Shown: positions 20,908 to 52,604, counted from the first letter of the stretch. The stretch: DNA of 64,000 nt from Bifidobacterium breve (GCA_945861935.1 CAMAVU010000001.1:45845-109844); one strand, 5' to 3'. Numbers and translations: made by a program. The notes: generated by a model from the sequence alone, not told the origin.

Positions 20908-20920
20908 TCCCCCAACGGTC

Positions 20921-23028: not shown

Positions 23029-24234
23029 CGTGTCCCGGGTCCGCACAGGCACCCGTTCCAGAACTACGCGCGCAGCGACCCGGGGATCGAAGTTCCGGAG
23101 CGCAGCCCGGTTCCCCTCCTCCGCGAGTGCCGGGAGGAGGTGGGGATGGGCGCTCGCCCACGAGAGCGCTTGTGCGACGTCGGCCGCTGTCTCGCAGTGA
23201 AGGCCCGGAAGGGCCGTCCCGTACCACGCGGAATACACATCGGGCCGCAGGTTGCCGAGGACGACGCGACGTCGCAACATCGAATCCATCGCAATGCCAG
23301 CCGGGCCGATCGGTGACAGGGCATCGCAGACGATGTGCTGGTCCTCGATAACGGATACGTAATGCTCGTAGGACAGTTCCGGCACCCACTCGACCCATCG
23401 GCCGATGCCCTGCGATGTGACGTACTGTTGGACCCGGGCGGGATCCAGCCCCTTGGTGGTCACGGTCAGCCGGGCGTCACCGCCTGAGAGAACGAACCGG
23501 CGAAAGCCCTCGAGCAGGATGTCGGTGCCCTTGCGGTCGGTGAAGGATTGGGCGGAATCGGCATCTCGGACTCCAATGCGCGCCAGACAGGCGATGCGCA
23601 GCGGAGCATCAGTGGGCATCGGTCGTGAGGCACGGGAACAGAAGGTGTTCCCGAGGCGCAGGGCGAGGCGTTGGGATGGCATGACACCGAGCCCCTGAAA
23701 CAAGATCTCGGCGTCCGGCCGAAGGCCCGGCGGGTCGTGGATGATCAACTCCGCCGAGGCGATGCCGTGCCGCTGCCGGGCCACGAGATGGCTCCATGCG
23801 AGCCGGTGGTCGAGCGCCTCGCGCGAGCGCCGGAAGTCGCCGCTCCATCCCGCCTCACGCAGATGAATCGAGTCGTAGTTCGCGTAGTAGGTGAGATCCG
23901 ATCCCGTGAGGTGCGCGACATGTGGGACGGACAGGAGGTCCGCGATGGAGGGCCCCTGGTCGTTGAGGAACACGAGGTCTGCCCACTCGTTGATGTCGGC
24001 AACCAGATCCCGCAGGCGCGGGCTGCGATCCACGAAGTCGCTGTCCGCGAGGCTGGCATCGGGGGGCCAGGTGACCTCGGCCGTGTGCGTATCCACGAGC
24101 GCCCGGAGGGATGAGGGCTGGTGGAGCGCTTCGGGGCGGGTTGGGACCAGACGGCACTCATGTCCGGATTCGGCAAACCCCAATGCCAGAAGATGCGGTG
24201 CGTTGTTGACGTTGCCGACGAACGCGATGCGCAT
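23023..24234 (-). CDS. putative glycosyltransferase (GT-B fold, GT1/GT4-like, divergent)
   Basis: An ATG at 24234 gives MRIAFVGNVNNAPHLLALGFAESGHE (Rossmann-type GT-B N-terminus). The second half is Rossmann-like, with TDRKGTDILLEGF. The 188 aa upstream in the track ORF are Arg/Pro-rich and judged non-coding. Confidence 0.5.
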   Translation of the reverse strand: MRIAFVGNVNNAPHLLALGFAESGHECRLVPTRPEALHQPSSLRALVDTHTAEVTWPPDASLADSDFVDRSPRLRDLVADINEWADLVFLNDQGPSIADLLSVPHVAHLTGSDLTYYANYDSIHLREAGWSGDFRRSREALDHRLAWSHLVARQRHGIASAELIIHDPPGLRPDAEILFQGLGVMPSQRLALRLGNTFCSRASRPMPTDAPLRIACLARIGVRDADSAQSFTDRKGTDILLEGFRRFVLSGGDARLTVTTKGLDPARVQQYVTSQGIGRWVEWVPELSYEHYVSVIEDQHIVCDALSPIGPAGIAMDSMLRRRVVLGNLRPDVYSAWYGTALPGLHCETAADVAQALSWASAHPHLLPALAEEGNRAALRNFDPRVAARVVLERVPVRTRDTS

Positions 24235-25172
24235 CACGTCCTCCCCGGCCCGGTAAGCCCATGCGCGAGCACATGGTATGTCCCGCCGGGGGTTCTGGCG
24301 ACTCCGACACGCTCCGTTGTCCGATGGCGAACGCGAATCCGCGCATGCGCGTCGGGGCGAAGGGGGCGGTCCCCCCGCCGGGTGCCGGTCCCGATTCGTT
24401 GCCCGGCGAGGTCTGCTGGGCCGACTGGCCCAGTGGGATCGTCCCAATCCATGCTGCGCGGGGCATGCTCTGGGCAGTACGCGACGAGGTCGTCCTGATG
24501 AGGGTACGCCCGGTATGGGGATGCGCCCGGCCTCCGTGGAGCGATCCACGGGGAGGAGGCAGTACTCATCCGGTGACGTCCCGCCCGGGATGCCCATGGC
24601 TGCCACGAAGGCCTGGACGTCGCAGGTACGGGCTGGATGGAATGATGCCGCGCGTGCCTGCGACGGGGGAATCAGGCACGCGGGCTGTACGGGAGGGTTG
24701 CCGTCCCGGGTGCCGGTAGCCGGGCGACAGGCGGAAGGGCCCCGCCCCGCCGCCCCTCGCTGCAGTTGGCACCGTCGATGACGCCCACCGGCACACACGA
24801 CGCGCGCGGCCGGTCACTCGACCAGAGCGGTTGCGCGGTGGCGCGCCCGCGCCCGGCGTTTCCGGGTTGGCGTGGAACCGGCCGGTGGTTGCCAACGTTC
24901 CACGATTCCGATCGGGGGAGTGCACGGGTGCCGGACGCCGGAGGGAGTGCGGACGCGAGGTGTGCCCCTGGGATCTCCGCCCGCTGCAGGCCTGCTGGCG
25001 TCCCGTGATCCGCTGCAGCCCGCGAGTGGGTCCACAGGGACGCGGGTCGGGTGCCCGGGAGCCGTGGCGTGCAAATCGGCACCCGTCCCGCCGACCTCGG
25101 TGTCCCGACTGATGGTCTATGAGGCTCCCCCGCCCCGATGTGTCGGTTCCAGGCGCCAACCACGCCGGTCCG

Positions 25173-27638
25173 TCATCGTCCCGATCCGCTGGCACGCGGG
25201 CGGAGGGTGATCCCCAGCGTCACGACGGAGAGGTCCGCTGCCGAGTGGTCGCGGAATCGCGGGTTCATCTCGGCAATCTGGCCGGTCGTGACGGACGGCG
25301 TGACCTCATCCCAGGAAGTCACTTGCCGCATCTCCGGTCCGACGCCGATGAGGAATGTGATTTCGGGATCGAAACCGGCATCCGCGGCGAGGCGGAGGTG
25401 GTCAGACGCACGCAGGCGATTCTCAGTGTTGATCAGCGCGTAGTCCTCGTCGGATGTGTAGAGGAAGCGAAGGGGTTCGGCTGTGTGGAGGTGGTCACGG
25501 AGGTCAATGCAGTGGAAGGCCACTGCGTCAGGACGCATCATGCGGTGCATGGCCGCGTACACGGCCTCGGGGTGCATCACATGTTCAAGCACCGAATTGG
25601 AGCACACGAAGTCCACGGAGCCGGGGCTGATGTTCATCGCCTCAAATGCTTCGTCGCCCCGCACGTCGAGGCCCTCGAACAGCACATCGTCGTGGGTTCC
25701 CTGACGGAGGTGGGGCGTCAGCGCAGCGACCAGGTGCGGCTCGGTGGCGCTCACGACAGACAGGAAGGGCGCCATCACGGAGTTCGGCATCCGGTGATCA
25801 ACACTCAGCAGGTCGTTGGCGATGACATGCTCGAACCCCTCGGCGAGTAGGCGGATGGCGGCCCAAGGGCGTTGACCGCATCCCAGAACGACGGCACGTG
25901 ACCCGCGACCGGCACGCTCGCGGGCATGTGTGAGCCACGGGAGGGCTTGCAGGAAGAAGTTGTTGAAGACGGTGTTGTTCGTGTGAGTGCTGGCGACGAA
26001 ACGTGAAAGGAGCGCCTCGTCTGTACCGGCGAGCCAATCGCCGTAGCCCCGGAGGAGGGCGTCAAGGAGCGCCGGCTCGGGGATCTCAACGGTGTACTCA
26101 CGGCCGTTGGTCCGGCAGTCCGAGCCGTCGGTGGATGAGAACATGACCCGGTCGCCCCATAGACAGAAGCGCCCGTGCCCGAGGGTGCGCACCTCTTCGT
26201 GCTGTGCATTCGGGGTGGTGAGGGGTACGCCGTCTTCGAACACCACGGTGCATGGCACGATACGGGGGTCCGCCAGAAGCCCCTTCGCCGCGGCCACCGG
26301 GAGAGGCGCGAGAACCGCGTATCCATTTTCGGAGATGAAGGGCCGGGAGAGCGACACCGTGCCCCACGCGGACACAACGGTAGGCGTATCGGTGACCACG
26401 AGTGCATACGTGCGCCCATTGGATCGGCAGTCCGTACCATCCGATGCGGCGAAGTAGATGTCGTCACCCCAGATGCTGAATCCGTTGCCATGTTCGCGGA
26501 TGGCAGCGTGAGGTACGTCGGCAAGGGAGAGCGCGACGCCGTTCTCTGTGACGTACGCCGTGTGTTGCGCTCCGTCATCAAGAAGTGTGCGCGCGACCGG
26601 CGGAAGGGACGTCCGGTAACTGAGTCCACCGTCCGGGATCAGTACCCCGTCGAGCGGGAAGGCATCCCCGACTGGCGGGGCTGATTGCTGTGGTTCGCGT
26701 CGGCGGCCACCGACGGTCGTCAACGCGCCGTTGTATTCCCGGCGCACTGCGCGGAGCGGTCGTGTGATGCGCCATGACGCCGACGAGGTCACGAGCGCGA
26801 GACCGGCGGTGGCGTCACGCTCCCGGGCCTCACTTTCGACGGCGATGCGTCGCGCGAGGTTCCGCTCGTGTGTCATCTGTTCCGTGGCACGCTGGAGGTC
26901 CGCGATCCGCTCGACAAGATCGCCTACGACATCGCTGGGCGCATCCTCGGCAGGGGTCGGTGTCGGCAGTGCTCGTCGGGTGTGCACCGGCCACTCATGA
27001 AGGTGACTTGTGCGGTTGTCGAGCCCCAGAAGGAGAGGATGTGCCTCGTGGGCGCGAAGGGCAAGGGGGAGCGTCAGCTGATCCCGTTGCGAGTACCGCA
27101 GGACGAGTGTCCACCATGTCTCCATCGCCCGAATGACGTCGGGGTGATGATGATGCCGGAGAATCATCCCGCCCCAGTACACGTCTCCGTTCAGGGCGGC
27201 GCTATCAACCGTGCGGACCATCGTGAGGTAGTCGGCCAGCACCGCAGGGGATTCCATGTGGAGGCGCGCGATCGCCTCTGCCTCGTCTCGCAGCGTGCCA
27301 TGGAACGAGTGCGTGTTGAGGGCAAGGCACGCCTCCGGGTTCGCGATGAACGCATTCAGCATGGCGTCGGGCGGGCACCGCAGGAGGACGCTGTTGTCGA
27401 TGTAGAGGGAGGTCTGGTACTCGGGCAGGTAGCGGTGCGGGAGGATCTTCGGGTGTCGTGAACTGCGACGGGTATCTGCCGGCAGGATCTTCTCGGTCAC
27501 CACCACGCGCCACGTAGCCGACGAGAGCGCGGAGTCGTCGGTGAAGCAGATGAAGTCGGTGCCCGATTGGTTCGCAACCTCCTGCTCGACGAGGGTCTCA
27601 TAGCCGCCGAAGAGACACGTGTAGACGCATGCACCCAT
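25173..27638 (-). CDS. multidomain protein: DUF616 (TOD1/MUCI70-like) glycosyltransferase, coiled coil, two novel tandem repeats, class I SAM methyltransferase
   Basis: The ATG at 27638 forms an ATGA overlap with the upstream epimerase stop. The DUF616 domain carries the motifs CLFGGYE, TDFICFTDD and RRSSRHPKILPH. A coiled coil (LVERIADLQRATEQMTHERNLARRIAVESEARE) is followed by SASWRITRPLR. Two roughly 57-aa repeats come next, and the C-terminal methyltransferase fold carries VVLGCGQRPW...FVCSNSVLEHV. Confidence 0.7.
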   Translation of the reverse strand: MGACVYTCLFGGYETLVEQEVANQSGTDFICFTDDSALSSATWRVVVTEKILPADTRRSSRHPKILPHRYLPEYQTSLYIDNSVLLRCPPDAMLNAFIANPEACLALNTHSFHGTLRDEAEAIARLHMESPAVLADYLTMVRTVDSAALNGDVYWGGMILRHHHHPDVIRAMETWWTLVLRYSQRDQLTLPLALRAHEAHPLLLGLDNRTSHLHEWPVHTRRALPTPTPAEDAPSDVVGDLVERIADLQRATEQMTHERNLARRIAVESEARERDATAGLALVTSSASWRITRPLRAVRREYNGALTTVGGRRREPQQSAPPVGDAFPLDGVLIPDGGLSYRTSLPPVARTLLDDGAQHTAYVTENGVALSLADVPHAAIREHGNGFSIWGDDIYFAASDGTDCRSNGRTYALVVTDTPTVVSAWGTVSLSRPFISENGYAVLAPLPVAAAKGLLADPRIVPCTVVFEDGVPLTTPNAQHEEVRTLGHGRFCLWGDRVMFSSTDGSDCRTNGREYTVEIPEPALLDALLRGYGDWLAGTDEALLSRFVASTHTNNTVFNNFFLQALPWLTHARERAGRGSRAVVLGCGQRPWAAIRLLAEGFEHVIANDLLSVDHRMPNSVMAPFLSVVSATEPHLVAALTPHLRQGTHDDVLFEGLDVRGDEAFEAMNISPGSVDFVCSNSVLEHVMHPEAVYAAMHRMMRPDAVAFHCIDLRDHLHTAEPLRFLYTSDEDYALINTENRLRASDHLRLAADAGFDPEITFLIGVGPEMRQVTSWDEVTPSVTTGQIAEMNPRFRDHSAADLSVVTLGITLRPRASGSGR
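26079..26564 (-). repeat. intragenic tandem duplication encoding two roughly 57-aa modules
   Basis: Copy 1 (26391-26564): AYVTENGVALSLADVPHAAIREHGNGFSIWGDDIYFAASDGTDCRSNGRTYALVV. Copy 2 (26079-26255): CTVVFEDGVPLTTPNAQHEEVRTLGHGRFCLWGDRVMFSSTDGSDCRTNGREYTVEI. Shared pattern: E-[DN]-G-V-x-L...H...[IV]R..G.G.F..WGD...F..[ST]DG[ST]DCR[ST]NGR.Y. Confidence 0.6.
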
Positions 27639-28591
27639 CAGACCGAAACGGGCTCGCGGGATCGATGCCATGCGACCTGCTCGATGATGCCCTCGCGGAG
27701 TGGTATGCGCGGCTCCCAACCGAGCATCGCACGGGCCTGTGTCGTGTCGGCACCGGTGCGTCTGACATCACCCGGCTGATCCCCACCCGGCTCGATGATG
27801 ATCGGCCTCCCCACCACCTCCTCGATGAGGCCGATCAGTTCCCGCATGCTCACGATGCTCCCGCCGCCGAGGTTGAGGACGGAGCCCGGAGCGATGTCCG
27901 CGGCAGCGGCGAGCACATTGGCCTCCACGATGTCATCGACGAACGTGAAATCGCGTTCTTGCGACCCATCGCCGTTGAGGATGAATGAGCCGCGGCCGAG
28001 GGCACACTCGATCAGCCTGTAGGTGGCCATATCCGGGCGCTGCCGCGGGCCATACACGGTGAAGTAGCGAAGTGACACCGTGCTCAGCGAGTGATTCGCC
28101 GCGTAAAGGTTGACGAGGTGCTCGCCCGCCAGCTTGGTGACCCCGTACGGGCTCCGCGGCACGGGCAGCGACTTCTCGGTGAACGGGAAGTCGTCACTGT
28201 CCCCGTACACGGAGGAACTGGAGGCGTAGACGAAGCGCTGAACACCGGCCCGGATGGCCGCCTCAAGCAGGATCTGAGTGGCCAGAATGTTGTCCCGGAC
28301 ATAGACCGCGAAGCCTCCGCCCCAACTGGCCCGGACGCCAGGCTGCCCAGCCTGGTGGAAGACGGCGTCCGCGCCCTCGATGAGCGCAGGGAGATCGGCA
28401 GTCAGGAGATCCTCGATACGGACGCGGACCCCCGCTTCCTCGATCGTGCGGACCGATCGCCTCTTGATGTCCGGGTCGTAGTAGTCCGAGAGTCGGTCAA
28501 TGCATATGACATCCCACCCCTCGTCGCGCAGCCGTTGCGCGAGTGTGCTGCCGATGAAGCCCGCACCTCCTGTCACCACGGCCTTCGGCAC
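27638..28591 (-). CDS. NAD-dependent nucleotide-sugar epimerase/dehydratase (extended SDR; possibly UDP-uronate 4-epimerase-like)
   Basis: 317 aa with VVTGGAGFIGS, the catalytic YGVTK (YxxxK) and FTVYGPRQRPDMA. GTG start at 28591. Confidence 0.85.
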   Translation of the reverse strand: MPKAVVTGGAGFIGSTLAQRLRDEGWDVICIDRLSDYYDPDIKRRSVRTIEEAGVRVRIEDLLTADLPALIEGADAVFHQAGQPGVRASWGGGFAVYVRDNILATQILLEAAIRAGVQRFVYASSSSVYGDSDDFPFTEKSLPVPRSPYGVTKLAGEHLVNLYAANHSLSTVSLRYFTVYGPRQRPDMATYRLIECALGRGSFILNGDGSQERDFTFVDDIVEANVLAAAADIAPGSVLNLGGGSIVSMRELIGLIEEVVGRPIIIEPGGDQPGDVRRTGADTTQARAMLGWEPRIPLREGIIEQVAWHRSREPVSV

Positions 28592-28678: not shown

Positions 28679-31600
28679 ATGTGTGGCATCGCTGGCATTC
28701 TCCTCGGCACCGATGGCGCTGGTGACCCTGAGCGTGTTCGGGCTCTCGTCGGCACCATGACGGAGTCACTGGCCCATCGTGGGCCCGATGCCAGCGGTAT
28801 CTGGGCCGACCCGGCGCATCGGTGTGTGTTCGGTCACCGGCGGCTCAGCATCGTCGACCTATCGGAGACGGGTGCACAGCCGATGTCGGCGCCGTCAACG
28901 CCGTGGGTGCTCACTTTCAACGGTGAGATCTACAACTTCCCTCTTATCCGCGTCGAACTCGAGCGCGCGGGAGTGGTATTCAGCGGGCGATCCGACACCG
29001 AGGTCCTCCTTCAGGCCATCACGGCGTGGGGTGAGGACGCCGTCGCGCGTCTTGACGGCATGTTCGCCTTCGCGGCCTTCAATCGCCACACCGGCGAGAC
29101 GCTGCTTGCGCGCGATCCCTTCGGGGAGAAGCCGCTCTATTACTGCGACGCCGGGTCCGCCGGGCTCGCGTTTGCCAGCGAGATCCGGGCCCTCGAACGC
29201 CTCCCTTGGTTTCGGCGCGAGGTCTCGGCCGATCGTCTCGCCGAGATGCTGATGTTCCAGTACGTGGGCGCCCCACGCACGATCTACGACGCCGTGTCGC
29301 AGGTCCCACCCGGCCACACCATGCACGTCGACCGTCGTGGACGACGTCGGGTCACGCGGTACTTCGCGTATGAGCCGGGTGTTGTCGAAGACGACGGGCG
29401 TCCCCTCTGGGCAGCCGCCGACGAGGTGGAGGATCTCCTGGCTGCGAGCCTGGAGCGTCGCATGGTTGCCGACGTGCCCCTTGGTGCGCTGCTGTCGGGG
29501 GGTGTGGACAGCGCGACGGTGTGCGCACTTGCCACGCGTCGGTTGGGTATACCCCTGGCGACGTTCTCCCTGGGATTCCGGGGTGCGCCGGAGTCCGAGA
29601 CCGAAGTGGCCGCAGCCATTGCCCGGGAGATCGGGAGCGATCACCATGAGTTGGTGGTCGATGGATCCGCAGTGGACTTCCTCCGTGAGATCGGCGACGT
29701 ACTCGATGAGCCGAACGGCGACGTTTCGTGTTTTCCGACGTACCTTCTCTCGCGGCTCGTCCGGGAGCATGTGACGGTCGCGATTTCCGGTGATGGCGGC
29801 GACGAGATGTTCGGGGGATACTCGAGATATCTGAACACACTCAACGATCTCCAGCGCCGACCGCGGGGCCGGTTCGGGTCGGAGTACTACGGCTCCGCCG
29901 TTCTGGTGATGAGTGACTTGGAGATTCGGGCGCTCTTCGGCTTGGTACCAGAGGGCCTGCGCGCTCATCTCCGGAGCCTGCGTGGCTCTCTTGAGGCCCA
30001 GCGCGGCACGCCATTGGCTGCCATGCGGGCCACCGACGCTGCCAACTACATGCCCGGTGCCGTGCTTGCGAAGGTGGACCGGATGAGCATGCAGCATTCC
30101 CTCGAGGTCCGGACGCCCTTTCTCAACGTGGACCTCGTGCGCTGCGCTGCCGGGCTTCCGCCGAGGCTGCTGGTGGGGGGCGGCTACGGCAAGCTGGTCC
30201 TCCGCGAGGTTGCAGCGCGCTATCTCCCGCGTGAGATCGTTGACCTCCCCAAGAAGGGCTTCGGCCTTCCTTCGCAGGACTGGGCGCGCGGGCCGATTCA
30301 GTCCGTTGCACGTGATCGGCTCCTCGGCCCCGGGAGTCGACTGGCGGGGATCGTCGGGTTCGACAGGATGCGCCAGTTCCTCATGCGCCCCTATCGGCTG
30401 GAGCCGCTGTGGGCCCTGGTGGCGCTGGAGTCGTGGCTCCGCGTCCATGATCCCGACGTGACGGGGCTGACCCCCGCCGTTGCCCCCGGCCGTGTGGGTG
30501 GATCACCTCGCGTTGCACGCCGGGCGCGCTGGCTCAGTTCCGAGACGCTCATCGTGGTTGATGACGCGTTTCAGTCGTCGCGATCCGAGCCGGAGGCTGA
30601 TGGCTGCAGCGGTATCGGGCGCGGGGTGACCGGGCGGGCACTGAACGTCCTGCGCGCGTTGCGCCCCATACTCAGATCCGAGGCTCCTGCGTCGGACGGT
30701 ACATGGGTTGATCTGCCACCGGACGACACCCTCGGGGCCGCCCTGCAGCGCGGAGGCCTCTCCGTGACGCACGCCCGAGTCGTCTGGTTCCGTGCTGATG
30801 CCTTGGTGAGCCAAGGTCCCCGAAGCCAACTCGCCCGTGTCGCGTCCTGGCTGAGATACCGGCTTCTGTACGGGAGCGTTGCGCGGGACGTGGGGAACAC
30901 CCGATCGCTCATCATCGTCAATCCCTTCGATGACTCGTGTGACCTTCCGGTGGTCACTCACAAGCGGCGCGTTGTGCCGGCCCGGGTGGGCAGGCGCATC
31001 GTCCGCTATGTCCCATCTTGGTGGCGCCCGGAGGTGGGGGTGCCGCCCCGCTCCCTGCCCTGGCGTGTGTCGCAGGACCTTGTCGGCTTGCCGCAGGTCC
31101 CCACCGCCAGCTCTGGACCGTTGCGCCGAGCGCTCATCGTCACCCATGCCCTTCCCTCCGGCGGTGCCGAGAGGCAGTGGTGTTACCTTGCCGCTGGGCT
31201 CAGGGCACGCGGGGTGGACGCGCGGCTGGTAACCACTCACCCGTTGGTGGGGCCGGACGCGCACTATCTGCCGCTCGCCGAGAACGCCGGTGTGCCGATC
31301 ACAGAGTTGCCGGACATCTCGGTGGGGGACCTCCTCACCGGTGTCACCGGCGAGGACCTATGCGCCGAGGTCCAGGGAGCCGACGAGGGGGAGTTCCGGG
31401 ATCTCGCGCTGCGACTGTCAGCGATGTGCCGTAAGAATCACCCCGACGCCCTGTTTGCCCAACTTGATCTCACCAATGTGGTCACGGCGTTCACCGGGGT
31501 CCGCGTGGGCGTTCCGCGGACCGTTTTGTCCTTCCGGAACTACAACCCCGACAACTTCTCATATCTCCGGAACGCTTGGTACCGCGATGTCTATCGCAGC

Positions 31601-32335
31601 TTGTCGACATGCCCGGACGTGCGGCTCGCGGGGAATTCCCGCGCTGGTAATGACGACTACGCTTCATGGTTGGGACTCCCCCGGCGGAAGGTCGCATTCA
31701 TCCCGAATGCCATTGACCAGGCGACAATCGGTCTCGGTGCCCCGAATGGGCTGCCCGATCGTACGGCGACCCGTCGTGCCCTGGGTCTGGACCCGGATGC
31801 ACCCATCGTGTTGGGCGCGTTTCGGCTGTCAGAGGAGAAGCGCGTGAGCCTCTTCGTCGAGGTGTGCGCACGGGTCCGGGAGCATGTCCCTGAGGTGCGT
31901 GTGCTCGTGGTGGGCAGGGGCCCCCAGGAAGACATCCTTCGGCATGCGATCTCGTGCCACGCGGTGGAGGACGTGGTCACCATTCTCGGTGCGCGGACCG
32001 ATATGGAGGCACTGTTCGCATCGGCGGACGTGCTGCTTCTCACGAGTCGTTTCGAGGGGATGCCCAACGTGGCCGCCGAGGCGCAGGCGCTGGGCGTGCC
32101 GGTGGTCGGGCCGCGTGTCGGTGCACTGCCCGATCTGCTGGATGACGGCCGCACGGGGATTGTGTGCGAGGACGACAGCGCCCGCACGCTTGCTGCGGCG
32201 GTTGCCCGGGTTCTGTGCGAGCGCGATCTGTGGCGGGCACGCACCGAGGAGGCCGCGGCTGCCTTCGCGGAGCGCTATTCGATCGACAGAATGGTTGATG
32301 CCTACATTGATCTGGCATCCGCGTCAGCCACCTGA
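28679..32335 (+). CDS. fusion protein: glutamine-hydrolysing asparagine synthase (AsnB)-like amidotransferase, linker, GT4 glycosyltransferase
   Basis: The ATG at 28679 gives MCGIAGIL (Ntn Cys2). The AsnB body carries LSGGVDS (PP-loop) and runs to about 30450. No stop occurs in this frame until 32335. The C-terminal roughly 400 aa form a GT-B domain (ALIVTHALPSGGAERQ..., SRFEGMPNVAAEAQALGVPVVG, GRTGIV). The track start at 28091 is antisense to the epimerase and was rejected. Confidence 0.8.
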   Translation: MCGIAGILLGTDGAGDPERVRALVGTMTESLAHRGPDASGIWADPAHRCVFGHRRLSIVDLSETGAQPMSAPSTPWVLTFNGEIYNFPLIRVELERAGVVFSGRSDTEVLLQAITAWGEDAVARLDGMFAFAAFNRHTGETLLARDPFGEKPLYYCDAGSAGLAFASEIRALERLPWFRREVSADRLAEMLMFQYVGAPRTIYDAVSQVPPGHTMHVDRRGRRRVTRYFAYEPGVVEDDGRPLWAAADEVEDLLAASLERRMVADVPLGALLSGGVDSATVCALATRRLGIPLATFSLGFRGAPESETEVAAAIAREIGSDHHELVVDGSAVDFLREIGDVLDEPNGDVSCFPTYLLSRLVREHVTVAISGDGGDEMFGGYSRYLNTLNDLQRRPRGRFGSEYYGSAVLVMSDLEIRALFGLVPEGLRAHLRSLRGSLEAQRGTPLAAMRATDAANYMPGAVLAKVDRMSMQHSLEVRTPFLNVDLVRCAAGLPPRLLVGGGYGKLVLREVAARYLPREIVDLPKKGFGLPSQDWARGPIQSVARDRLLGPGSRLAGIVGFDRMRQFLMRPYRLEPLWALVALESWLRVHDPDVTGLTPAVAPGRVGGSPRVARRARWLSSETLIVVDDAFQSSRSEPEADGCSGIGRGVTGRALNVLRALRPILRSEAPASDGTWVDLPPDDTLGAALQRGGLSVTHARVVWFRADALVSQGPRSQLARVASWLRYRLLYGSVARDVGNTRSLIIVNPFDDSCDLPVVTHKRRVVPARVGRRIVRYVPSWWRPEVGVPPRSLPWRVSQDLVGLPQVPTASSGPLRRALIVTHALPSGGAERQWCYLAAGLRARGVDARLVTTHPLVGPDAHYLPLAENAGVPITELPDISVGDLLTGVTGEDLCAEVQGADEGEFRDLALRLSAMCRKNHPDALFAQLDLTNVVTAFTGVRVGVPRTVLSFRNYNPDNFSYLRNAWYRDVYRSLSTCPDVRLAGNSRAGNDDYASWLGLPRRKVAFIPNAIDQATIGLGAPNGLPDRTATRRALGLDPDAPIVLGAFRLSEEKRVSLFVEVCARVREHVPEVRVLVVGRGPQEDILRHAISCHAVEDVVTILGARTDMEALFASADVLLLTSRFEGMPNVAAEAQALGVPVVGPRVGALPDLLDDGRTGIVCEDDSARTLAAAVARVLCERDLWRARTEEAAAAFAERYSIDRMVDAYIDLASASAT

Positions 32336-33717
32336 TTCTCACCGGGCTGGTCCTCCCGGGACAGATGGAGGACGGCGATGGCGGAGATGACCACCGCCAC
32401 GAAGTAGAACGGCCACGCTTTGCGCGGGTGGGAGTTCCAGATATCCATGTACGACAGGACGAAGGAAATCCACGCTCCCGTCGCGAGTGAAACCATTACG
32501 CCGCTTCCCCGGGGACGGATCCTCAGGCGCCGCCGGACCGCGGGGATTGTGGAGGTGACGCCCGCAAGGGCTACGAGCCACGCCGCGAGCCAGAAGAGAG
32601 CGATGTTGTTACCTGTTGTGGCGTCGGTCGTGTAGTAGACCGGGTTGACGATGGCCGGGACCACAGTGCGGGTTCCGGGGAAGACCCACGCTGAGGACGC
32701 TTGGGCCGCTCCCTGCACAGCCCAGGTCATGGCGCTGTCGGGGTTGCCGCGCCAGTAGGAGACGGGGACCGCGAGGTAGTTCTCCTCGATCCACGCGAGC
32801 CCGTTGGGCCCGCATGTCTCGATGGCGGTGGAACCGAGAGCATTCCAGTCCGTGATGGCGGGGTTGAACTCGCGTAGGCACCGCGGGGCATCATCGGGGA
32901 GTTCGGCGACGACATCCGCGCTGAAGAGGGGGTTCAGGGCTGGCGAGATGGCGAAGAGGGTCCGGTACACCCGCTCTGATGCGGGACCCCACGCCCGGCT
33001 CTGGTTCGCCGATACATGCTGGATGTAGACGCCGCACCCGACGAGGAGGATGACGCCTCCCGCGATGGTGACCCAGCGGTGGACGGCTGAGCGAATCGGG
33101 CCGTGCCGGATCAGCGACACGAGAAGAACCCCGAGCACTGCGATGAGGACGACCACGCCCGTGATCCTGATGACCGAGAGCATGACCGCGAGCGCCAGTG
33201 CGGCGGTGGAGGAGGCGACGTCGCGACGGTGCCATCCCGCAGCGCGCACCCTGCGGGCGAGGTTCACTGTGAGGCCCACCACAACCAGGGCAATGATGTA
33301 GGCGATGCCCTCGGCTCCGATCGTGAGCACGTGTGTCAGGGCGGTACCCGTCAGCGCAAACAGATATATGAACGCACGCCCGGCAATCTGCAGGTGCGGC
33401 CCGAGCGGAGCAGTCATGGCCCGCGCGACGAACACCGTCGCGAGCATCGCGATGACCCACTGGGCGGTGATACGCCCGTCATTCCCGAGCAGGCCATCGC
33501 CGCCGGGAAAGAGTGAGTAGAAGAGGGTTGCCGGCCACGCCCGAAAGGCATCACCGGCAAGACTCAACCCCCCCCAACTACCGATCGGGTGACCACCACC
33601 TGTGGCCCCGGTGGGATCCGTGAACTCTTCTCCGCTACGCAGGTAGCCGCCCGAGTCGCCGGTGATGATGGGTGTGAGTGAGTACACCGCTGATGCGGCG
33701 TACGCGAGCATGAACAT
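32302..33717 (-). CDS. polytopic membrane protein with large extracytoplasmic loop (candidate polymerase or GT-C-like enzyme)
   Basis: About 470 aa from the ATG at 33717 (MFMLAYAASAVYSL); an upstream in-frame TTG is also possible. It has about 10 TM segments and a roughly 110-aa Cys-containing loop (PRCLREFNPAITDW...ETCGPNGLAW). It is last in the SDR-methyltransferase operon. I recognise no family motif. Confidence 0.55.
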   Translation of the reverse strand: MFMLAYAASAVYSLTPIITGDSGGYLRSGEEFTDPTGATGGGHPIGSWGGLSLAGDAFRAWPATLFYSLFPGGDGLLGNDGRITAQWVIAMLATVFVARAMTAPLGPHLQIAGRAFIYLFALTGTALTHVLTIGAEGIAYIIALVVVGLTVNLARRVRAAGWHRRDVASSTAALALAVMLSVIRITGVVVLIAVLGVLLVSLIRHGPIRSAVHRWVTIAGGVILLVGCGVYIQHVSANQSRAWGPASERVYRTLFAISPALNPLFSADVVAELPDDAPRCLREFNPAITDWNALGSTAIETCGPNGLAWIEENYLAVPVSYWRGNPDSAMTWAVQGAAQASSAWVFPGTRTVVPAIVNPVYYTTDATTGNNIALFWLAAWLVALAGVTSTIPAVRRRLRIRPRGSGVMVSLATGAWISFVLSYMDIWNSHPRKAWPFYFVAVVISAIAVLHLSREDQPGENQVADADARSM

Positions 33718-33781
33718 CCAGTCGAACCACCGCAACGTTCTGAGGTGGTCGGCGATCCGGCTCCCGCCAGCCCGGCATCTA

Positions 33782-34555
33782 TCAGCCGTGGACGGCAGCG
33801 GTGCTCTCCCGGTCGCGCTTCGACAGGGTGAACAGCAGGTGCAGATGCGTCCAGCGGAGGCGGGGTCCGAGGCGCTGCTCAAGCCGCAGCATGCGCGAGA
33901 GCACCCATCCCGGAATGGGCGTCCGGGAGAACACGCCACCGGACAGCACATACGACGGACCGGTCAGCGACGGGCCCTCCTCGACGAGGAAGTTGGGGAA
34001 GCTCTGCTCGAAGGCGGCGCGGTCGCGGCGGAGCAGGATGTATGCCAGTGCCTGATTGGAGTCCCAGCGCTCGTCTGTGGATCCTCCCCACGCAGCAGCG
34101 CCCTCGTCGTATGGCTCCGGATGAAGGTGCCGGAAGACGAAGCGGGCGAGAGGGCTCCAGTACGGCTCGATACATGCGACACACCCGCCGGGTGCAAGGA
34201 CTCGATCGGCCTCGGCCATGAACGCCGGCACGTCAGGGATGTGGTGCAGAACATCCTTCATGATGATGGCCCGTATCGCTCCGTCGCCGAAGGGGAGGAC
34301 CTCGGCGCGGCACGTGATATCGACTGTGGGGTCGTCAATCACATCGGTGACGAGCACCCTGGGATCGAGGTCGTGCACCATCCCCGGGGCCCCACCGATC
34401 TCCACCACGGTCCCCGTGGTGGAGATCGGTGTACGGGCGACCTGGTCGAGAAGTCGCGAGTACATATCGTGGTACACGGACGAGAGATACGGATCACAGA
34501 CGATTGCGCGCCGGATGGCCTGGGGAGGGGAATCGCGGTCCACTCGCTCACGCAT
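33782..34555 (-). CDS. class I SAM-dependent methyltransferase
   Basis: 257 aa with VVEIGGAPG (motif I), LPFGDGAIRAIIMKDVLHH and LAPGGCVACIEP. Confidence 0.75.
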   Translation of the reverse strand: MRERVDRDSPPQAIRRAIVCDPYLSSVYHDMYSRLLDQVARTPISTTGTVVEIGGAPGMVHDLDPRVLVTDVIDDPTVDITCRAEVLPFGDGAIRAIIMKDVLHHIPDVPAFMAEADRVLAPGGCVACIEPYWSPLARFVFRHLHPEPYDEGAAAWGGSTDERWDSNQALAYILLRRDRAAFEQSFPNFLVEEGPSLTGPSYVLSGGVFSRTPIPGWVLSRMLRLEQRLGPRLRWTHLHLLFTLSKRDRESTAAVHG

Positions 34556-34654: not shown

Positions 34655-35482
34655 CTACCCAGCGAAGGGCCGGAGAGGCACGCCGAGGGGCGCGCCGCCG
34701 CCGACCGTCGGCGTCGGGGCGTGAATGACACCGAGGATGTTGTCGGCACGAAACGGCAGTGGGACCCGGGAGAACTCGGCGAGGCGAAGGCCGGCGATGG
34801 CGACTGCGGAGGGCAGGCGGATGATCCGGACGCGGCGCCCGTCGCGCCGGGCGATTCGCCGGGCAATCTCCTCCAGTCGGAGGGCCTCAGGATGGGCGAT
34901 GGGCAGCGGTCGGTCCGCCGGGATGGTGTCCTCGACGGCACGGAGTATGACGGCGGCGAGATCCCGCGCATGCACGAGGACCTGGTTGGCGACCTCCACG
35001 CGCGGTACCGGTATGATGGGCAGACGTCGGACGGCGGCGCGCATTCCCGCCACCAAACCGCGATCGCCCGCGTCGTCCCATACGAGCCCCGGCCGGACGA
35101 CCATGGCCCCGCGTTCGGCCGCGATCGACTCGATGGATCGCTTTGCGGCGCCGTACGTCGATGGCACCTCCGGCGCCGCGGACATGGACGATGTGATAAG
35201 GATCCGGGGCACGTCCGCGAGTGTCGCGGCGTCGAGGAGTCGGCGAGTCCCCTCAACATTCACCTCGGCCTCCTGGGCTGATACGCGCAGGTACGCGTAC
35301 GCGCAATGGATGAGCGCATCTGCTCCCACGAGCGCGCTCGTCAAGCGTGGCCGACCATCGTTGAGGTTGAATGGGGGTGTCGATCCCCGACCGAGGGGAC
35401 GCACCGTGTGACCGCGTGCGCTGGCCTCGCGCGCCACATGTTCGCCGATCAGACCGGATGCGCCCGTGATGGCGACCACCAA
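34655..35482 (-). CDS. NAD(P)-binding SDR/epimerase-family protein
   Basis: 275 aa with AITGASGLIGEH (TGxxGxxG) and STYGAAK (YxxxK). TTG at 35482 or GTG at 35479. Confidence 0.7.
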   Translation of the reverse strand: MVVAITGASGLIGEHVAREASARGHTVRPLGRGSTPPFNLNDGRPRLTSALVGADALIHCAYAYLRVSAQEAEVNVEGTRRLLDAATLADVPRILITSSMSAAPEVPSTYGAAKRSIESIAAERGAMVVRPGLVWDDAGDRGLVAGMRAAVRRLPIIPVPRVEVANQVLVHARDLAAVILRAVEDTIPADRPLPIAHPEALRLEEIARRIARRDGRRVRIIRLPSAVAIAGLRLAEFSRVPLPFRADNILGVIHAPTPTVGGGAPLGVPLRPFAG

Positions 35483-35530
35483 GGGTTTCTGATGTCGCCG
35501 GTGGGGTTCGTTGGTCGTCAGGGCAGCGCC

Positions 35531-35561
35531 TTGCCTCGGATCTGGTGATGTCCTTTAGTAT
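35531..35561 (+). promoter_or_regulatory. candidate sigma-70-type promoter giving a leaderless mRNA for the GT2 operon
   Basis: TTGCCT (35531-35536), then a 19-nt spacer, then TAGTAT (35556-35561) in a locally AT-richer patch. The in-frame ATG at 35569 lies 8 nt downstream, compatible with leaderless initiation. The spacer is longer than optimal. Confidence 0.3.
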
Positions 35562-36540
35562 CGTCGACATGTCCGCCCCCGCCGCCTCTGCAACCCCCGC
35601 CCGTGAAGCACGGATCGCGGTGCTCATCCCGTGCCGGGACGAGGCCAGCACCATCGCCAGCGTGGTCCATGCCTTCCAACGGGCCCTCCCGACTGCGTCC
35701 GTCTATGTCTACGACAACTGCTCGACCGACGGCACGGCCGATGTCGCGCACCGTGCCGGGGCGATCGTGCGGCATGAGACGCGCCCGGGGAAGGGGCTTG
35801 TAGTCCGGCGGATGTTCGCCGACGTGGACGCCGACGTCTATCTCATCGTGGATGGCGACGATACGTATGACTCATCGGTGGCCGCTGAGATGGTTGAGAT
35901 GCTTCTCTCGCAGGAACTGGACATGGTGGTCGCAGCTCGGGGGGCCAGCGACAACGACATCGATGAGCGCCGCGGTCACGCAATGGGGAACCGCCTTTTT
36001 TCGCGGGTGGTCGCCTCGTTTTTCGGCCGGGCGTTCACCGACGTTTTCTCGGGGTACCGCGTCCTGTCGCGGCGGCTGGTCAAGACGTTCCCGGCGGAGT
36101 CCTACGGCTTCGAGATCGAGACCGAGATGACGGTGCACAGCCTCGATCTGATGTTGCCGGTCGGGGAGATCACCGCTCTGTACGCCGCTCGTCACATGGG
36201 GGGTGGTGAGAGCAAACTCCGGACGATCCCCGATGGGGCGCGGATAGCGGGAAAGATCATCAACTTGTTCCGGCACTCCCGCCCGCTCGCATTCTTCTCG
36301 ATCCTCGCGCTTCTTGTCACCTGCGTCGCATGGGCAGTTGGCGGCGTTGTCGTGGTGGAGTACATCGATACCGGCCTCGTTGCACGTCTGCCGTCAGCCG
36401 TGCTCGCGTCGGCTCTGCAACTGGTGGCCGTGCTGCTCGTCGCAACCGGCCTCATTCTCGACTCGGTTGCGCGTGGACGGCGGGAGGCGAAGCGGCTCGC
36501 CTATCTGGGTTACATCTCGCCAAGGGTGGATCCGCACTAG
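35545..36540 (+). CDS. GT2 glycosyltransferase with two C-terminal TM helices (GtrB/ArnC-like polyprenyl-phosphate sugar synthase)
   Basis: IAVLIPCRDEASTI, YVYDNCSTDGT, IVDGDDTY (DxD). The C-terminal helices FFSILALLVTCVAWAVGGVVV and ASALQLVAVLLVATGLIL are followed by a basic tail. Possible starts: GTG 35545, ATG 35548, ATG 35569. Confidence 0.8.
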   Translation: MMSFSIVDMSAPAASATPAREARIAVLIPCRDEASTIASVVHAFQRALPTASVYVYDNCSTDGTADVAHRAGAIVRHETRPGKGLVVRRMFADVDADVYLIVDGDDTYDSSVAAEMVEMLLSQELDMVVAARGASDNDIDERRGHAMGNRLFSRVVASFFGRAFTDVFSGYRVLSRRLVKTFPAESYGFEIETEMTVHSLDLMLPVGEITALYAARHMGGGESKLRTIPDGARIAGKIINLFRHSRPLAFFSILALLVTCVAWAVGGVVVVEYIDTGLVARLPSAVLASALQLVAVLLVATGLILDSVARGRREAKRLAYLGYISPRVDPH

Positions 36541-42383: not shown

Positions 42384-43745
42384 TCACGCTGACCGGCCCC
42401 ACCGCCAGACGGTCTTACCCGGGGACACATTGTCGTGGGCATCGGCAGTGGGCAGGACAGACCAGGCCACCGGGACCGCCAGAACCCCATCACCTGGCCA
42501 AGTCCGCTCCATGAAGAGCGGGACCGACTCAGGCCACTGATCCAGTCGGGCCCCGGTTGTGAGGTCACGGATGATCGCATTGACGTTGAGCCATCCCTCT
42601 TGAATCGGCAGGGAAAACGCGATCGCGCACGTGAAACCGCCTCTCTCCTGAGGGAGGGCCCCGGCCATGTCGGAGGAGTGCGTCTCCAGAATGGTCTGGC
42701 GGAGTGAGTCGGTGACGGTGATCTCCATGCTGAGCACGGCGATTGGGTCGTTCGTCTCAACCTCCACTTCCACCACGACCGTTGCACCCGCCGGAAGCCG
42801 CCTCTGGGCGTCAGGATCGGGTGGATCGGTGATCTGCATTCGCTTGATCGTGGCCGAGGGCTCCACCGGCAGTGTGCCCGGGTCGGGGGTGAAGCGGATG
42901 GGGGGTTCCCCGCCCTCCTCCTCGTGGTGATATTCGGGGTCGGCTACGGATGCCGGGGGTGACCAGACCGTGTCTGGAACATCGGCTCCGATTCCACCCT
43001 CCCGGTCCTCGAGCAACTGCTCATAGATAGGGAGCACCTCATCCGGGGAGCCGTCCACGACCACTCGGCCGCCGTCGATCAGGACGGCACGCGAGCATAT
43101 GGTGCGGACCGCGTTCTGATCGTGCGACACAAAGGCAAGGGTCCCACCGTGATCGAGGAAGTGATGGATCCTGTCCATGCACTTCGCCTGGAAGGCGGCG
43201 TCGCCGACGGTGAGGACCTCGTCGAGAAGGAGGATGTCAGGGTTGACGTGGGCGGCCACGGCGAACGCCAGGCGCATCTGCATGCCGCTGGAGTAGGTGC
43301 GCACAGGCATGTCAATGAAATCGGCGAGCTCCGCGAAGTCGATGATCTTCTGGAGGCGCGCTGACACATCCCGGTGGCGCAGGCCGTGGAGCGCCCCGTT
43401 CATAAAGACGTTCTCCCTGCCGGTGAAGTCCGGGTGGAAGCCCGATCCGAGTTCCAGCATGGCGGCGATCGACCCACCGGCTTCGACCGAGCCCGCGTGG
43501 GGCGGGAGAATGCCCGCGAGCACTTTGAGCAAGGTGCTCTTGCCCGCTCCGTTGCGGCCGATGAACGCGACGGCCTCGCCGGAGCGGATGTCGAGGGTGA
43601 CATCGCGCAGTGCCCACAACTCGGAGTAGGCGACGCGCCGCCTGCGCACGATCGTCTCCTTGAGCGTCAGACTGCGCTCGTGGACGATCCGGAAGCGGCG
43701 GGAGACGTGGTGCAACCGCACCTGCCCGCGCACGAGGTTACTCAC
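42384..43745 (-). CDS. wzt: polysaccharide ABC exporter ATP-binding protein (Wzt/TagH type) with C-terminal extension
   Basis: The GTG at 43745 forms a GTGA overlap with the wzm stop. Walker A GRNGAGKST, signature YSSGMQMRLAF and Walker B ILLLDE are present. Residues about 251-453 form an acidic linker plus a beta-rich domain. The track ORF upstream part (to 44435) is antisense or out of frame to wzm. Confidence 0.9.
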   Translation of the reverse strand: MSNLVRGQVRLHHVSRRFRIVHERSLTLKETIVRRRRVAYSELWALRDVTLDIRSGEAVAFIGRNGAGKSTLLKVLAGILPPHAGSVEAGGSIAAMLELGSGFHPDFTGRENVFMNGALHGLRHRDVSARLQKIIDFAELADFIDMPVRTYSSGMQMRLAFAVAAHVNPDILLLDEVLTVGDAAFQAKCMDRIHHFLDHGGTLAFVSHDQNAVRTICSRAVLIDGGRVVVDGSPDEVLPIYEQLLEDREGGIGADVPDTVWSPPASVADPEYHHEEEGGEPPIRFTPDPGTLPVEPSATIKRMQITDPPDPDAQRRLPAGATVVVEVEVETNDPIAVLSMEITVTDSLRQTILETHSSDMAGALPQERGGFTCAIAFSLPIQEGWLNVNAIIRDLTTGARLDQWPESVPLFMERTWPGDGVLAVPVAWSVLPTADAHDNVSPGKTVWRWGRSA

Positions 43746-44545
43746 AACTCGACTGCCATCTCGCGCTCGAGGCGTGCGAATACCTGCCATCCGATGATCA
43801 CCATGGCGATGCTCGCCAGAATGACGTAGAGCGCATCGGCCAGCGGGGGCCAGGTTCCGAAGAAGAGCGTGTCCTGAATACAGATCACGAGGGGCGCGAT
43901 GGGGTTGCCCCAGTGGAGGATGCCGATGAGCACCTCGTGCTCGCGCGCCGCGTCGGGCAGCGTGGAGTACGTGTAGAAGATCGGGGTCAGAAAGAACCAC
44001 GGGACGCCGAGGGCGGCGATGATGTGCTCGACGTCCCGGAAGTACACATTGACCGCTGCGAGAACCAACCCCAGACCGATGGTGAACACGAACGCCACGA
44101 TGAGGAGCGCCGGTAGGGCGATCAGCGGTGCGTAGGAACCCTCCTGCAGCCAGATGCACAGGGGAAGGGCGATGAGCAACATTGCCGCTGCGATGACCGC
44201 ATTGGCGGTGATCGCAGCGGCTGGGATGATCACCCGCGGGAACCGTACTTTCGTGACCAGCGACGCGTTGCTGATGATGCTCTGTGCGCCGACCGACATG
44301 CCCCCGAAGACGAGAGTCCAGACCATGAGGCCGACGAAGAGGAAGAGCGCGTAGTTCTGGATCGGTGACCCGAATAGGAACTTGAACACGACCCAATACG
44401 CCGCGACCACGAGAAGCGGGTTGATGAGCGTCCACGCGAGACCGAGTGCGGAAGCCTTGTAGCGCTGGCGAACCTCGCGTCGTACGAGATTCCGAAACAG
44501 CGGCGCGTATGCCAGTAGGGGGCGAAGCGAGTCCACTGTCCGCAC
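43742..44545 (-). CDS. wzm: polysaccharide ABC exporter permease (Wzm, ABC-2 type)
   Basis: LLAYAPLFRNLVRREVRQRYKASALGLAWTLINPLL is the canonical Wzm/TagG N-terminal motif, with 6 TM segments. The GTG at 44545 sits 1 nt after the upstream stop (TAG, 44547-44549). The track ATG at 44605 would overlap by 59 nt. Confidence 0.85.
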   Translation of the reverse strand: MRTVDSLRPLLAYAPLFRNLVRREVRQRYKASALGLAWTLINPLLVVAAYWVVFKFLFGSPIQNYALFLFVGLMVWTLVFGGMSVGAQSIISNASLVTKVRFPRVIIPAAAITANAVIAAAMLLIALPLCIWLQEGSYAPLIALPALLIVAFVFTIGLGLVLAAVNVYFRDVEHIIAALGVPWFFLTPIFYTYSTLPDAAREHEVLIGILHWGNPIAPLVICIQDTLFFGTWPPLADALYVILASIAMVIIGWQVFARLEREMAVEL

Positions 44546-44546
44546 T

Positions 44547-45053
44547 CTATTGGACGGTCGCCCCCGCTGCGATCGCGGCCTCGATCGCAGCGTCCACGAC
44601 GGCACCTACGCCGTCGTCGAACCCGGTGGCCGGGTCGATCCCCAGGGTTTGTGCGAGCGCAGGCGCTGTCCCGAGGACGCGCCGTACGGTGAAACGGTCG
44701 AGCGGGGAGGGGGGAGCGAGGACCCCGTCGCCCCCCGGCCCCCCGGCCATCACCGCAATCGGCGGGGCGAAGGGTGCGATGGCGGCGGCCTCGGCCGGAT
44801 CGATCACCACGACGGCGTCCGAGGAGGTGATCTGTGTCCGGCTGATGGCATCCACATGACGTACGCCCACGAGCGGGATCAGGACCCGGGGTCGCGGGTC
44901 GCCATGGTGGATCAGCATGGGATCACCCACGCCAATCAAAAACGATGCGCAGGGCAGCCCGGATCGTGAGTGGTCCGTCAGGCGCTCGCAGAGTGCGAGC
45001 GCGAAGGCCGCGGTGCCGCCCGCAGCGTCGCGTCCGCAGCGTATGACGCTCAT
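44547..45053 (-). CDS. hypothetical protein (168 aa) embedded between GT4 and wzm
   Basis: The ATG at 45053 forms an ATGA overlap with the upstream GT4 stop. Sequence begins MSVIRCGRDAAGGTAAFALALCERL... No recognisable motif. Ala/Gly/Pro-rich but in the operon frame. The 260-aa track version has an Arg-rich extension. Confidence 0.45.
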   Translation of the reverse strand: MSVIRCGRDAAGGTAAFALALCERLTDHSRSGLPCASFLIGVGDPMLIHHGDPRPRVLIPLVGVRHVDAISRTQITSSDAVVVIDPAEAAAIAPFAPPIAVMAGGPGGDGVLAPPSPLDRFTVRRVLGTAPALAQTLGIDPATGFDDGVGAVVDAAIEAAIAAGATVQ

Positions 45054-52546: not shown

Positions 52547-52604
52547 CGGTCAAGGCTAGTCGGTGCATTGGGGCGCGGGCGGCAGGCCGTAGAGTGACCA
52601 CGTC

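Follow-up and report, generated by a model that had tools for sequence, protein, structure and literature searches.

A predicted AsnB-type amidotransferase fused to a GT4 glycosyltransferase in a Wzm/Wzt surface-glycan locus

A 64,000-nucleotide stretch of DNA listed as Bifidobacterium breve (GCA_945861935.1, CAMAVU010000001.1:45845-109844; hereafter "the window") carries at 28679-32335 a single open reading frame (ORF) of 1218 amino acids (aa), in which an AsnB-type amidotransferase is followed by a spacer and by a glycosyltransferase (GT) of family GT4. We conclude that the encoded protein is almost certainly a genuine bifunctional fusion. As to its chemistry, sequence comparison and analogy suggest, with a probability that we put at roughly 0.55, that the GT4 module transfers a hexuronic acid and that the AsnB module amidates the C6 carboxylate to a uronamide. 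The fusion combines known kinds of module in a new way and is not itself a new kind. It is widespread in the databases under the name "asparagine synthase", and in full-text literature searches no paper describing or characterising an AsnB-GT fusion turned up. A published Wzm/Wzt O-antigen cluster of Acidovorax oryzae includes uncharacterised "asparagine synthetase" ORFs that are stated to have no known role in O-polysaccharide synthesis, and the text is silent on a GT fusion (PMC11597636).

An intact fusion gene with many fused relatives

An earlier reading made from the sequence alone (the sequence-only reading) had claimed one uninterrupted polypeptide composed of an amidotransferase, a linker and a GT-B domain. 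The ORF list and the translation confirmed the single polypeptide, with a frame open from 28091 to the stop codon at 32333-32335 and an ATG-TGT (Met-Cys) start at 28679 that gives the N-terminus MCGIAG. A Pfam scan recovered the three-part anatomy by placing GATase_7/6, Asn_synthase, Glyco_transf_4 and Glycos_transf_1 on the same chain. No transmembrane-like segment was found in the 1218-aa protein (KD19 maximum 1.43). AlphaFold2, given residues 27-1218 and an alignment of 71 sequences, produced a model with a mean predicted local distance difference test (pLDDT) score of 87.6 and a predicted template-modelling (pTM) score of 0.87; for a 1192-residue chain of three parts, such a pTM suggests a defined inter-domain arrangement.

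How common is this architecture? A search over 5.8 billion proteins returned 5465 matches, and the architecture was read for the best 120. All 120, drawn from NCBI, ENA, JGI and Logan assemblies, carry PF00733 together with PF00534 on chains of 1088-1617 aa. The sequence-only reading had proposed a database search for the same architecture and had allowed that orthologues might always prove to be two genes; they are fused, not split. Named sources of the fusion include Rhodopseudomonas boonkerdii, Bradyrhizobium sp. LHD-71, and metagenome-assembled genomes (MAGs) of Janthinobacterium and Burkholderiaceae, to which a scan of GTDB-representative genomes added MAGs of Thermoleophilia, Nitrospira, Nitrospiraceae, Gammaproteobacteria and Burkholderiales. 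The nearest relative in that scan is encoded by a Thermoleophilia MAG (46% identity over spacer and GT). Domain order is fixed across these distant phyla, and most members have MCG at the start, (L/M)ESW where the AsnB module ends (about residues 585-593) and GGAE(R/K) at the opening of the GT.

Public gene calls place the start of the protein variably. That of the window gene (P0001, 1192 aa) begins at Met27 and loses the catalytic Cys2 (window 28679-28759), a second public record (P0262) has the full 1218 aa, and other members, P0004, P0011, P0031, P0046 and P0077 among them, have also been called from internal starts.

Could a frameshift, a missed stop codon or a chimeric assembly have made the fusion out of separate asnB-like and GT4 genes? 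The window is 67-68% G+C, and high-GC DNA yields long chance ORFs: from the window's own base frequencies, the 227-codon spacer alone would be free of stops with a probability of ~0.007 (about 0.7%), and all 1218 codons with a probability of ~2e-12. Over most of its length the ORF has its lowest G+C content at codon position 2 (GC2); at ~30480-30780 this signal is weaker, as is the periodicity at the third position (GC3). One relative (P0121, on contig L033) does carry an internal deletion and a frameshift. Against an artefact stand at least 120 fused homologues (the best 120 of the 5465 matches), residues conserved in frame across the whole spacer within the subfamily, the confident full-length fold prediction and an identical sequence from a second assembly. 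The latter is a 38-kb ENA metagenome contig (L037), different in length from the window contig, which is 100% identical to the window over 15.7 kb and encodes the same 1218-aa protein; a Logan assembly holds this protein too. Since the window contig, L037 and the Logan assembly may derive from the same reads, the identical ORF excludes an assembler-specific artefact and does not cover errors shared by the reads. Homologue architecture, in-frame conservation of the spacer and the second assembly together rule out a frameshift or missed stop, and we regard the artefact as effectively refuted.

The damaged relative was considered as a naturally split gene. P0121 (621 aa), the top representative match, consists of spacer and GT only. 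Its 3-kb JGI contig carries a gene of the window's subfamily in which the AsnB synthetase core is read in a different frame; beyond the core, the C-terminal part of the AsnB module (~130 aa) is deleted and the frame shifts. The gene caller reports spacer and GT alone. We rejected a natural split in favour of a damaged or misassembled fusion, the copy being either a pseudogene or a misassembly.

The two catalytic modules and the spacer between them

The first 588 residues form the AsnB-type module (Table 1). The N-terminal part has the features of a class II (N-terminal nucleophile, Ntn; PurF-type) glutaminase, with a Cys directly after the Met and the Arg, Asn-Gly-Glu and Asp residues of the glutamine site, in the motifs MCGIAG (residues 1-6), HRRLSIVD (53-60), FNGEIYN (80-86) and SDTEV (105-109); GATase_7/6 matched at residues 36-173. 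The second part is a PP-loop synthetase that matched PF00733 at residues 249-588 (276 bits against a cutoff of 21), with LSGGVDS at residues 272-278 (29492-29512), SGDGGDEMFGGY at 29786-29821, LPKKGFG at 30245-30265 and a closing LESWLR at 30425-30442. In the 71-sequence family alignment, the residues of the glutaminase motifs (Cys2, the R-L of HRRLS, N-G-E and D-T-E) as well as SGGxDS, SGDGGDE and the Lys of LPKKGFG are invariant or nearly so. The best solved relatives of the Asn_synthase module are TsnB9 (7YLZ) and Escherichia coli AsnB (1CT9), to which Foldseek matched the N-terminal half of the model at target-normalised template-modelling (TM) scores of 0.81 and 0.75-0.79, respectively.

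Could the N-terminal module be a housekeeping asparagine synthetase, or else a scaffold without catalytic activity, fused by chance to a GT? The broad NCBIfam equivalog TIGR01536 (asn_synth_AEB) was exceeded (443 bits against a cutoff of 267), which speaks for the former and explains the public name "asparagine synthase (glutamine-hydrolyzing)". The E. coli-type AsnB equivalog NF006949, on the other hand, stayed at 255.5 bits against a cutoff of 499. Aligned to E. coli AsnB, the window sequence has a gap where T322, T323 and R325 (the "TTIR" segment) lie, residues implicated in the handling of Asp and beta-aspartyl-AMP; moreover, it has SGDGGDE in place of SGEGSDE. Together these three differences make L-aspartate an unlikely acceptor, so that, judging from sequence, the module likely acts on another one, although it shares its fold and catalytic motifs with E. 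coli AsnB, human ASNS and TsnB9. The gene also lies within a glycan island and not among genes of amino-acid metabolism, and the invariant catalytic residues speak against a dead scaffold. We therefore consider a chance fusion of either sort very improbable.

Residues 816-1218 have the make-up of a retaining GT-B enzyme of family GT4, namely two Rossmann lobes, an EX7E motif and Pfam models above cutoff: Glyco_transf_4 at residues 828-1013 (35.7 bits, cutoff 28.5) and Glycos_transf_1 at residues 1027-1188 (96.5 bits, cutoff 26.4), with Glyco_trans_1_4 at 103.8 bits. A match to GT4-conflict (PF20706, 28.6 bits) was set aside because much stronger generic GT4 models overlap it. The N-lobe contains GGAERQW (31160-31180) and SFRNYNP (31529-31549), and the C-lobe FRLSEEK (31820-31840) and the EX7E motif EGMPNVAAE (residues 1126-1134, 32054-32080). 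Both Glu residues of EX7E, GGAERQW and the phosphate-binding R...EK motif are invariant or nearly so in the family alignment, and Foldseek with the C-terminal half found BshA, HepE, MshA and PimB' at target-normalised TM scores of 0.76-0.86. Across both lobes, the best NCBIfam model was that of TviE from the Vi antigen system (PRK15179; residues 818-1211 against TviE 284-689, E = 2e-36). The single GTs of the surrounding clade have variable N-terminal extensions, and the clade is also found in giant multidomain proteins.

What lies between the two enzymes? The sequence-only reading had described a linker without a recognised motif. Pfam and NCBIfam models indeed gave no match on residues 589-815; the segment is not featureless, however. 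In the full-length AlphaFold2 model it holds a folded alpha/beta (strand-helix) core at about residues 614-763 (30518-30967), most of it with a block-mean pLDDT of ~87-95 and with three segments below 50; low-confidence loops interrupt the spacer at about residues 601-608, 713-734 and 763-793. Six subfamily members aligned in frame share 37 invariant positions at 36-41% identity. The secondary structure of the model gives no evident coiled-coil ruler, and as modelled the spacer is not a floppy tether. When it was modelled alone from six sequences the result was poor (pLDDT 59.7), and a Foldseek search of the PDB with this isolated model returned nothing better than E = 0.96.

Spacers of the window type (~245 aa) were found only in P0002-P0006, which are 55-56% identical to the window protein, and the subfamily is rare: apart from the 90%-identity cluster of the window protein itself it comprises six more. 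The main family, made of ~1300-aa proteins (for instance P0010, residues ~600-955), has a different, longer spacer of 320-390 aa, without a Pfam family and with the conserved motif FEGxRQLPP...SH..I..GxGRYS; P0039 and P0115 each have two copies of it, and P0104 has two GxGRYS motifs. When the two spacers were compared by hhalign, only the first 49 columns aligned, at 68% probability, and by sequence the window spacer is not detectably homologous to that of the main family beyond ~50 residues.

A proposed coupling of uronate transfer and amidation

Which sugar might such a protein handle? Divergent from the fusion gene lies a short-chain dehydrogenase/reductase (SDR) gene that the sequence-only reading had likened to UDP-uronate 4-epimerases. 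The likeness held up: among solved structures its product comes closest to BcUGAepi (6ZL6/6ZLA) and MoeE5 (6KV9), each scoring ~229 bits where the next match reaches 173; it shares an unchanged RYFTVYGPRQRPDMA motif with BcUGAepi, and Tyr149, Lys153 and Arg185 are kept. Arg185 holds the carboxylate of UDP-galacturonic acid (UDP-GalA) (PMC12338863). With the Tyr/Lys pair, Arg185 and characterised UDP-glucuronic acid (UDP-GlcA) 4-epimerases as its closest relatives, the SDR is a predicted UDP-GlcA 4-epimerase and would probably supply UDP-GalA. An SDR gene takes up the same divergent position in loci L030 (61% identity) and L032 (37%).

That AsnB paralogues of this kind are tied to the amidation of uronic acids, as had also been suggested, agrees with the closest specific curated family of the AsnB module, TIGR03108 (eps_aminotran_1; second-best in NCBIfam), which includes WbpS, WbqG and PGN_1234 (PMC7468200). 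These proteins of Pseudomonas aeruginosa O6, E. coli O121 and Porphyromonas gingivalis have the same pair of Ntn glutaminase and PP-loop modules and are encoded in surface-glycan loci, and deletion of their genes abolishes uronamide formation (PMC7468200, PMC6025236). Unlike the window protein, they stand alone, at ~630 aa and without a GT. Whether WbpS-type amidation takes place on the nucleotide sugar or on a lipid-linked intermediate is left open by the literature (PMC2615507, PMC7468200).

Moenomycin biosynthesis offers a precedent in which the same three activities are clustered, as MoeE5 (a UDP-GlcA 4-epimerase, and the co-best solved relative of the window SDR), MoeGT1 and the amidotransferases MoeH5/MoeF5, whose targets are carboxylates of galacturonic acid (GalA). 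Both amidotransferases resemble AsnB, and the substrates of MoeF5 are lipid-linked. MoeH5 turns the carboxyl group of a GalA unit into a carboxamide or other amides, and moeH5 overlaps moeGT1 (PMC8778134). The moenomycin proteins are separate polypeptides, however, and their product is a phosphoglycolipid antibiotic, not a polymer exported by Wzm/Wzt. TviE, likewise a retaining GT4 enzyme, polymerises GalNAcA and thus uses a uronic-acid donor; it differs from the window protein in its N-terminal region and has no amidotransferase. Large cytoplasmic proteins that join GTs to modifying modules are described for Klebsiella pneumoniae WbbB and ORF6-O7, from Wzm/Wzt loci with carbohydrate-binding modules on Wzt; in the accessible part of that source, no amidotransferase is among the modules named for WbbB-type polymerase/terminator proteins (PMC11231755).

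The window locus has the composition of a Wzm/Wzt locus, with a permease (ABC2_membrane at 43742-44605), an ATPase (ABC_tran and Wzt_C within 42384-44435) and several large GT4-like ORFs; the same holds for L001, L031 and L032, where the Wzm/Wzt genes flank the fusion. Wzm and Wzt define the export route of the locus glycan. In a pathway dependent on such an ATP-binding cassette (ABC) transporter the glycan is built in the cytoplasm, which fits a fusion protein without a transmembrane segment. We consider the protein a soluble or peripheral cytoplasmic enzyme of this surface-glycan pathway.

These elements suggest the following mechanism. The adjacent UDP-GlcA 4-epimerase would supply UDP-GalA, and the retaining-type GT4 module would move the sugar, probably GalA, onto the growing lipid-linked glycan. 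The AsnB-type module would hydrolyse glutamine at Cys2 to ammonia and use ATP in its PP-loop site to adenylate the C6 carboxylate of the sugar; AMP would then be displaced by the ammonia, leaving the uronamide (GalAN). The fusion would then couple transfer and charge-neutralising amidation both stoichiometrically and spatially, the protein working like WbpS/WbqG joined to a TviE-like GT while belonging, by curated cutoffs, to neither family. What favours this chemistry is the epimerase-like neighbour with its Arg185, the SDR gene similarly placed in L030 and L032, the similarity to TIGR03108, TviE as the best GT model, a tandem GT of the same clade (P0122) that adjoins two genes of the UDP-sugar dehydrogenase family, an SDR and Wzm, and the moenomycin precedent. 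The single ORF, its two intact catalytic modules, a fusion conserved across phyla, the Wzm/Wzt setting and the uronate-epimerase-like neighbour can be taken as established; the identity of the sugar, the identity of the amidated carboxylate with the one handled by the GT, and the order of the reactions are what we infer.

Several observations weigh against the proposal. The AsnB module falls short of the curated cutoff of TIGR03108 (425.9 against 816.9 bits, in two matched stretches), and because of this shortfall we infer a WbpS-like way of working and do not read it from family membership. The GT likewise stays below the TviE equivalog cutoffs (125.6 against 733 for PRK15179; 85.5 against 813 for PRK15490) and is no TviE orthologue. 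Among the best 150 representatives of its clade at 50% identity there are 31 AsnB fusions, 23 tandem GTs and 96 single GTs, so that 119, some of them possibly fragments, lack an AsnB module. A gene for UDP-sugar 6-dehydrogenase (Ugd) was found neither in the 64-kb window (Pfam of selected long ORFs, and tblastn) nor within 10 kb on either side of the fusion in L001, L030, L031 and L032 (Pfam neighbour lists). By tblastn, weak Ugd-family matches appeared only in L010, L012, L014 and L017, of which L010 alone also has a close AsnB match (53% identity) near a GT match. Finally, many fusion loci carry a GDP-mannose 4,6-dehydratase (GMD) and several methyltransferases, which suggests a methylated 6-deoxyhexose glycan as the bulk polymer, with the uronic acid or uronamide as a minor, adaptor or terminal residue.

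Two other readings accept a genuine fusion. One keeps both activities and has the AsnB module amidate a carboxylate other than the hexuronate C6, such as that of an N-acyl or amino-acid substituent on the 4-amino-4,6-dideoxyhexose from the nearby aminotransferase/WbqC cassette, that of an ulosonic acid, or that of a cap which ends the chain and is recognised by the carbohydrate-binding module of Wzt. The missing Ugd gene fits it, and so does a cassette of radical-SAM, WecE-like, WbqC and 591-aa proteins that lies upstream of the fusion here and in L003 and L007. Wzt-borne Wzt_C-type domains recognise terminal modifications, and the Wzt of this locus has such a domain. Yet the gene that adjoins the fusion encodes a UDP-GlcA 4-epimerase-like SDR with a carboxylate-binding Arg, the sugar-linked AsnB paralogues cited above for which there is genetic evidence all act on uronic acids, and genes for ulosonic-acid synthesis were not seen among the ORFs scanned; on balance we think this reading unlikely.

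The other reading grants the fusion and denies the coupling: the AsnB module would amidate a UDP-uronic acid for use by another GT, the fused GT4 would transfer some other sugar, and the fusion would do no more than keep the two expressed together or located together within a multi-enzyme assembly complex. Module shuffling, the rule in ABC-transporter-dependent systems (PMC11231755), is matched by the modularity of this GT clade, whose members also occur alone, in tandem and in giant multidomain proteins, and two of the fusions (P0087 and P0119) have gained a Methyltransf_24 domain; for Bordetella amidotransferases the sugar-nucleotide stage is favoured (PMC2615507). A fixed domain order and a fusion conserved over distant phyla speak against a loose association of this kind, the pTM of 0.87 suggests a set inter-domain geometry and not beads on a string, and the closest curated model of the GT is a uronic-acid polymerase. 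We regard the uncoupled protein as rather improbable.

Within the proposal of uronate transfer and amidation, a stricter version, which we advance only tentatively and hold to be doubtful, sets the order of the steps. The target of the AsnB module, acting in cis, would be the uronate just attached to the lipid-linked chain by the GT4 module, and not the nucleotide sugar, and the neutral uronamide would signal the next step, be it extension, or capping or recognition by the carbohydrate-binding module of Wzt. If this were true, it would answer, for one family, the question of when bacterial uronamides form, and ABC-transporter-dependent polymerases would gain a new class of modifying module.

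Uronamide residues are found in O-antigens, N-glycans, anchors of type IX secretion (T9SS) and moenomycins. The covalent AsnB-GT fusion is a "Rosetta-stone" link that would name the partner GT of the amidotransferase, and within this one soluble protein the order of transfer and amidation, and their coupling, can be tested directly. The fusion also shows that hundreds of proteins now named "asparagine synthase (glutamine-hydrolyzing)" are bifunctional enzymes of glycan assembly.

The surrounding glycan locus

The fusion gene lies in a glycan and envelope island of lower G+C content (Table 1). Homologous loci repeat some of its elements: Wzm/Wzt, several methyltransferases, one of them usually convergent just downstream of the fusion, and often GMD.

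Table 1. Positions of the fusion gene, its parts and neighbouring features in the 64-kb window
Feature	Position	Strand	Basis
Whole fusion gene, 1218 aa + stop: AsnB-type amidotransferase / spacer / GT4	28679..32335	+	ORF list, translation, domain scans
Class II (Ntn) glutaminase, Met-Cys2 nucleophile	28679..29278	+	Pfam GATase_7 134 bits, GATase_6 134 bits (above cutoffs)
Asn_synthase PP-loop ATP pyrophosphatase module	29423..30442	+	PF00733 276 bits, profile 1-354/354
Spacer, 227 aa, without known family	30443..31123	+	No Pfam/NCBIfam match
GT4 (GT-B, retaining-type) glycosyltransferase module	31124..32332	+	Pfam, NCBIfam, fold matches
SDR, probable UDP-glucuronate 4-epimerase, divergent from fusion	27638..28591	-	PDB matches, motif, Arg185
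Wzt (ABC ATPase + Wzt_C carbohydrate-binding domain) and Wzm (ABC-2 permease)	42384..44605	-	Pfam
nuo operon	1-8 kb
Lower-GC glycan and envelope island	~15-62 kb
Upstream of fusion: carbamoyltransferase, GDSL-like protein, radical-SAM/SPASM enzyme, WecE-like aminotransferase, WbqC, unknown 591-aa ORF, TOD1_MUCI70 + methyltransferase ORF, SDR 27638-28591
Downstream of fusion: unknown 549-aa ORF, methyltransferase, short SDR, GT2, GMC oxidoreductase, two large GT4-like ORFs, Wzt, Wzm, more GT4s, SDR, GDP-mannose 4,6-dehydratase
Beyond those: UbiA, GT2, LPG_synthase_TM and GT87 genes	51132-59951

The cassette of radical-SAM/SPASM enzyme, WecE-like aminotransferase (TIGR02379, 465 bits, over cutoff), WbqC and a ~590-aa protein occupies 19948-24798 in the window, and L003 and L007 (~650-7300), two loci from Nitrospira MAGs, have the same cassette directly upstream of the fusion, an arrangement that suggests a functionally linked amino-sugar module. 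Closer to the fusion, an 848-aa ORF on the minus strand (25173-27719) joins a TOD1/MUCI70 GT-like domain (residues 67-220) to a class I methyltransferase (residues 603-783); the two are separate genes in L030 and L001, adjacent in L030. This ORF may be a second fusion of the locus; its start is uncertain and its 5' end overlaps the SDR gene.

Five long ORFs of the island gave no Pfam match, at 23023-24798 (-), 32302-33951 (-), 45104-46408 (+), 55585-57675 (-) and 59885-61183 (+), and the first two had no NCBIfam match either. These two have weak relatives in L030 (32-36% identity), and the one at 32302-33951, encoded on the strand opposite to the fusion, shares 34 nt with the fusion's 3' end.

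Downstream, the group of GT2, short SDR and GMC-family oxidoreductase (34655-38036) is conserved in the Thermoleophilia MAG locus L001 (~18200-22540), there with a GtrA gene nearby; in principle, an alcohol group of a sugar could be oxidised by a GMC oxidase. The combination of UbiA, GT2, LPG_synthase_TM and GT87 is typical of actinobacterial envelope glycosylation with polyprenyl-phosphate sugars, and the presence of these genes in the window is consistent with a Thermoleophilia MAG as the source of the nearest relative.

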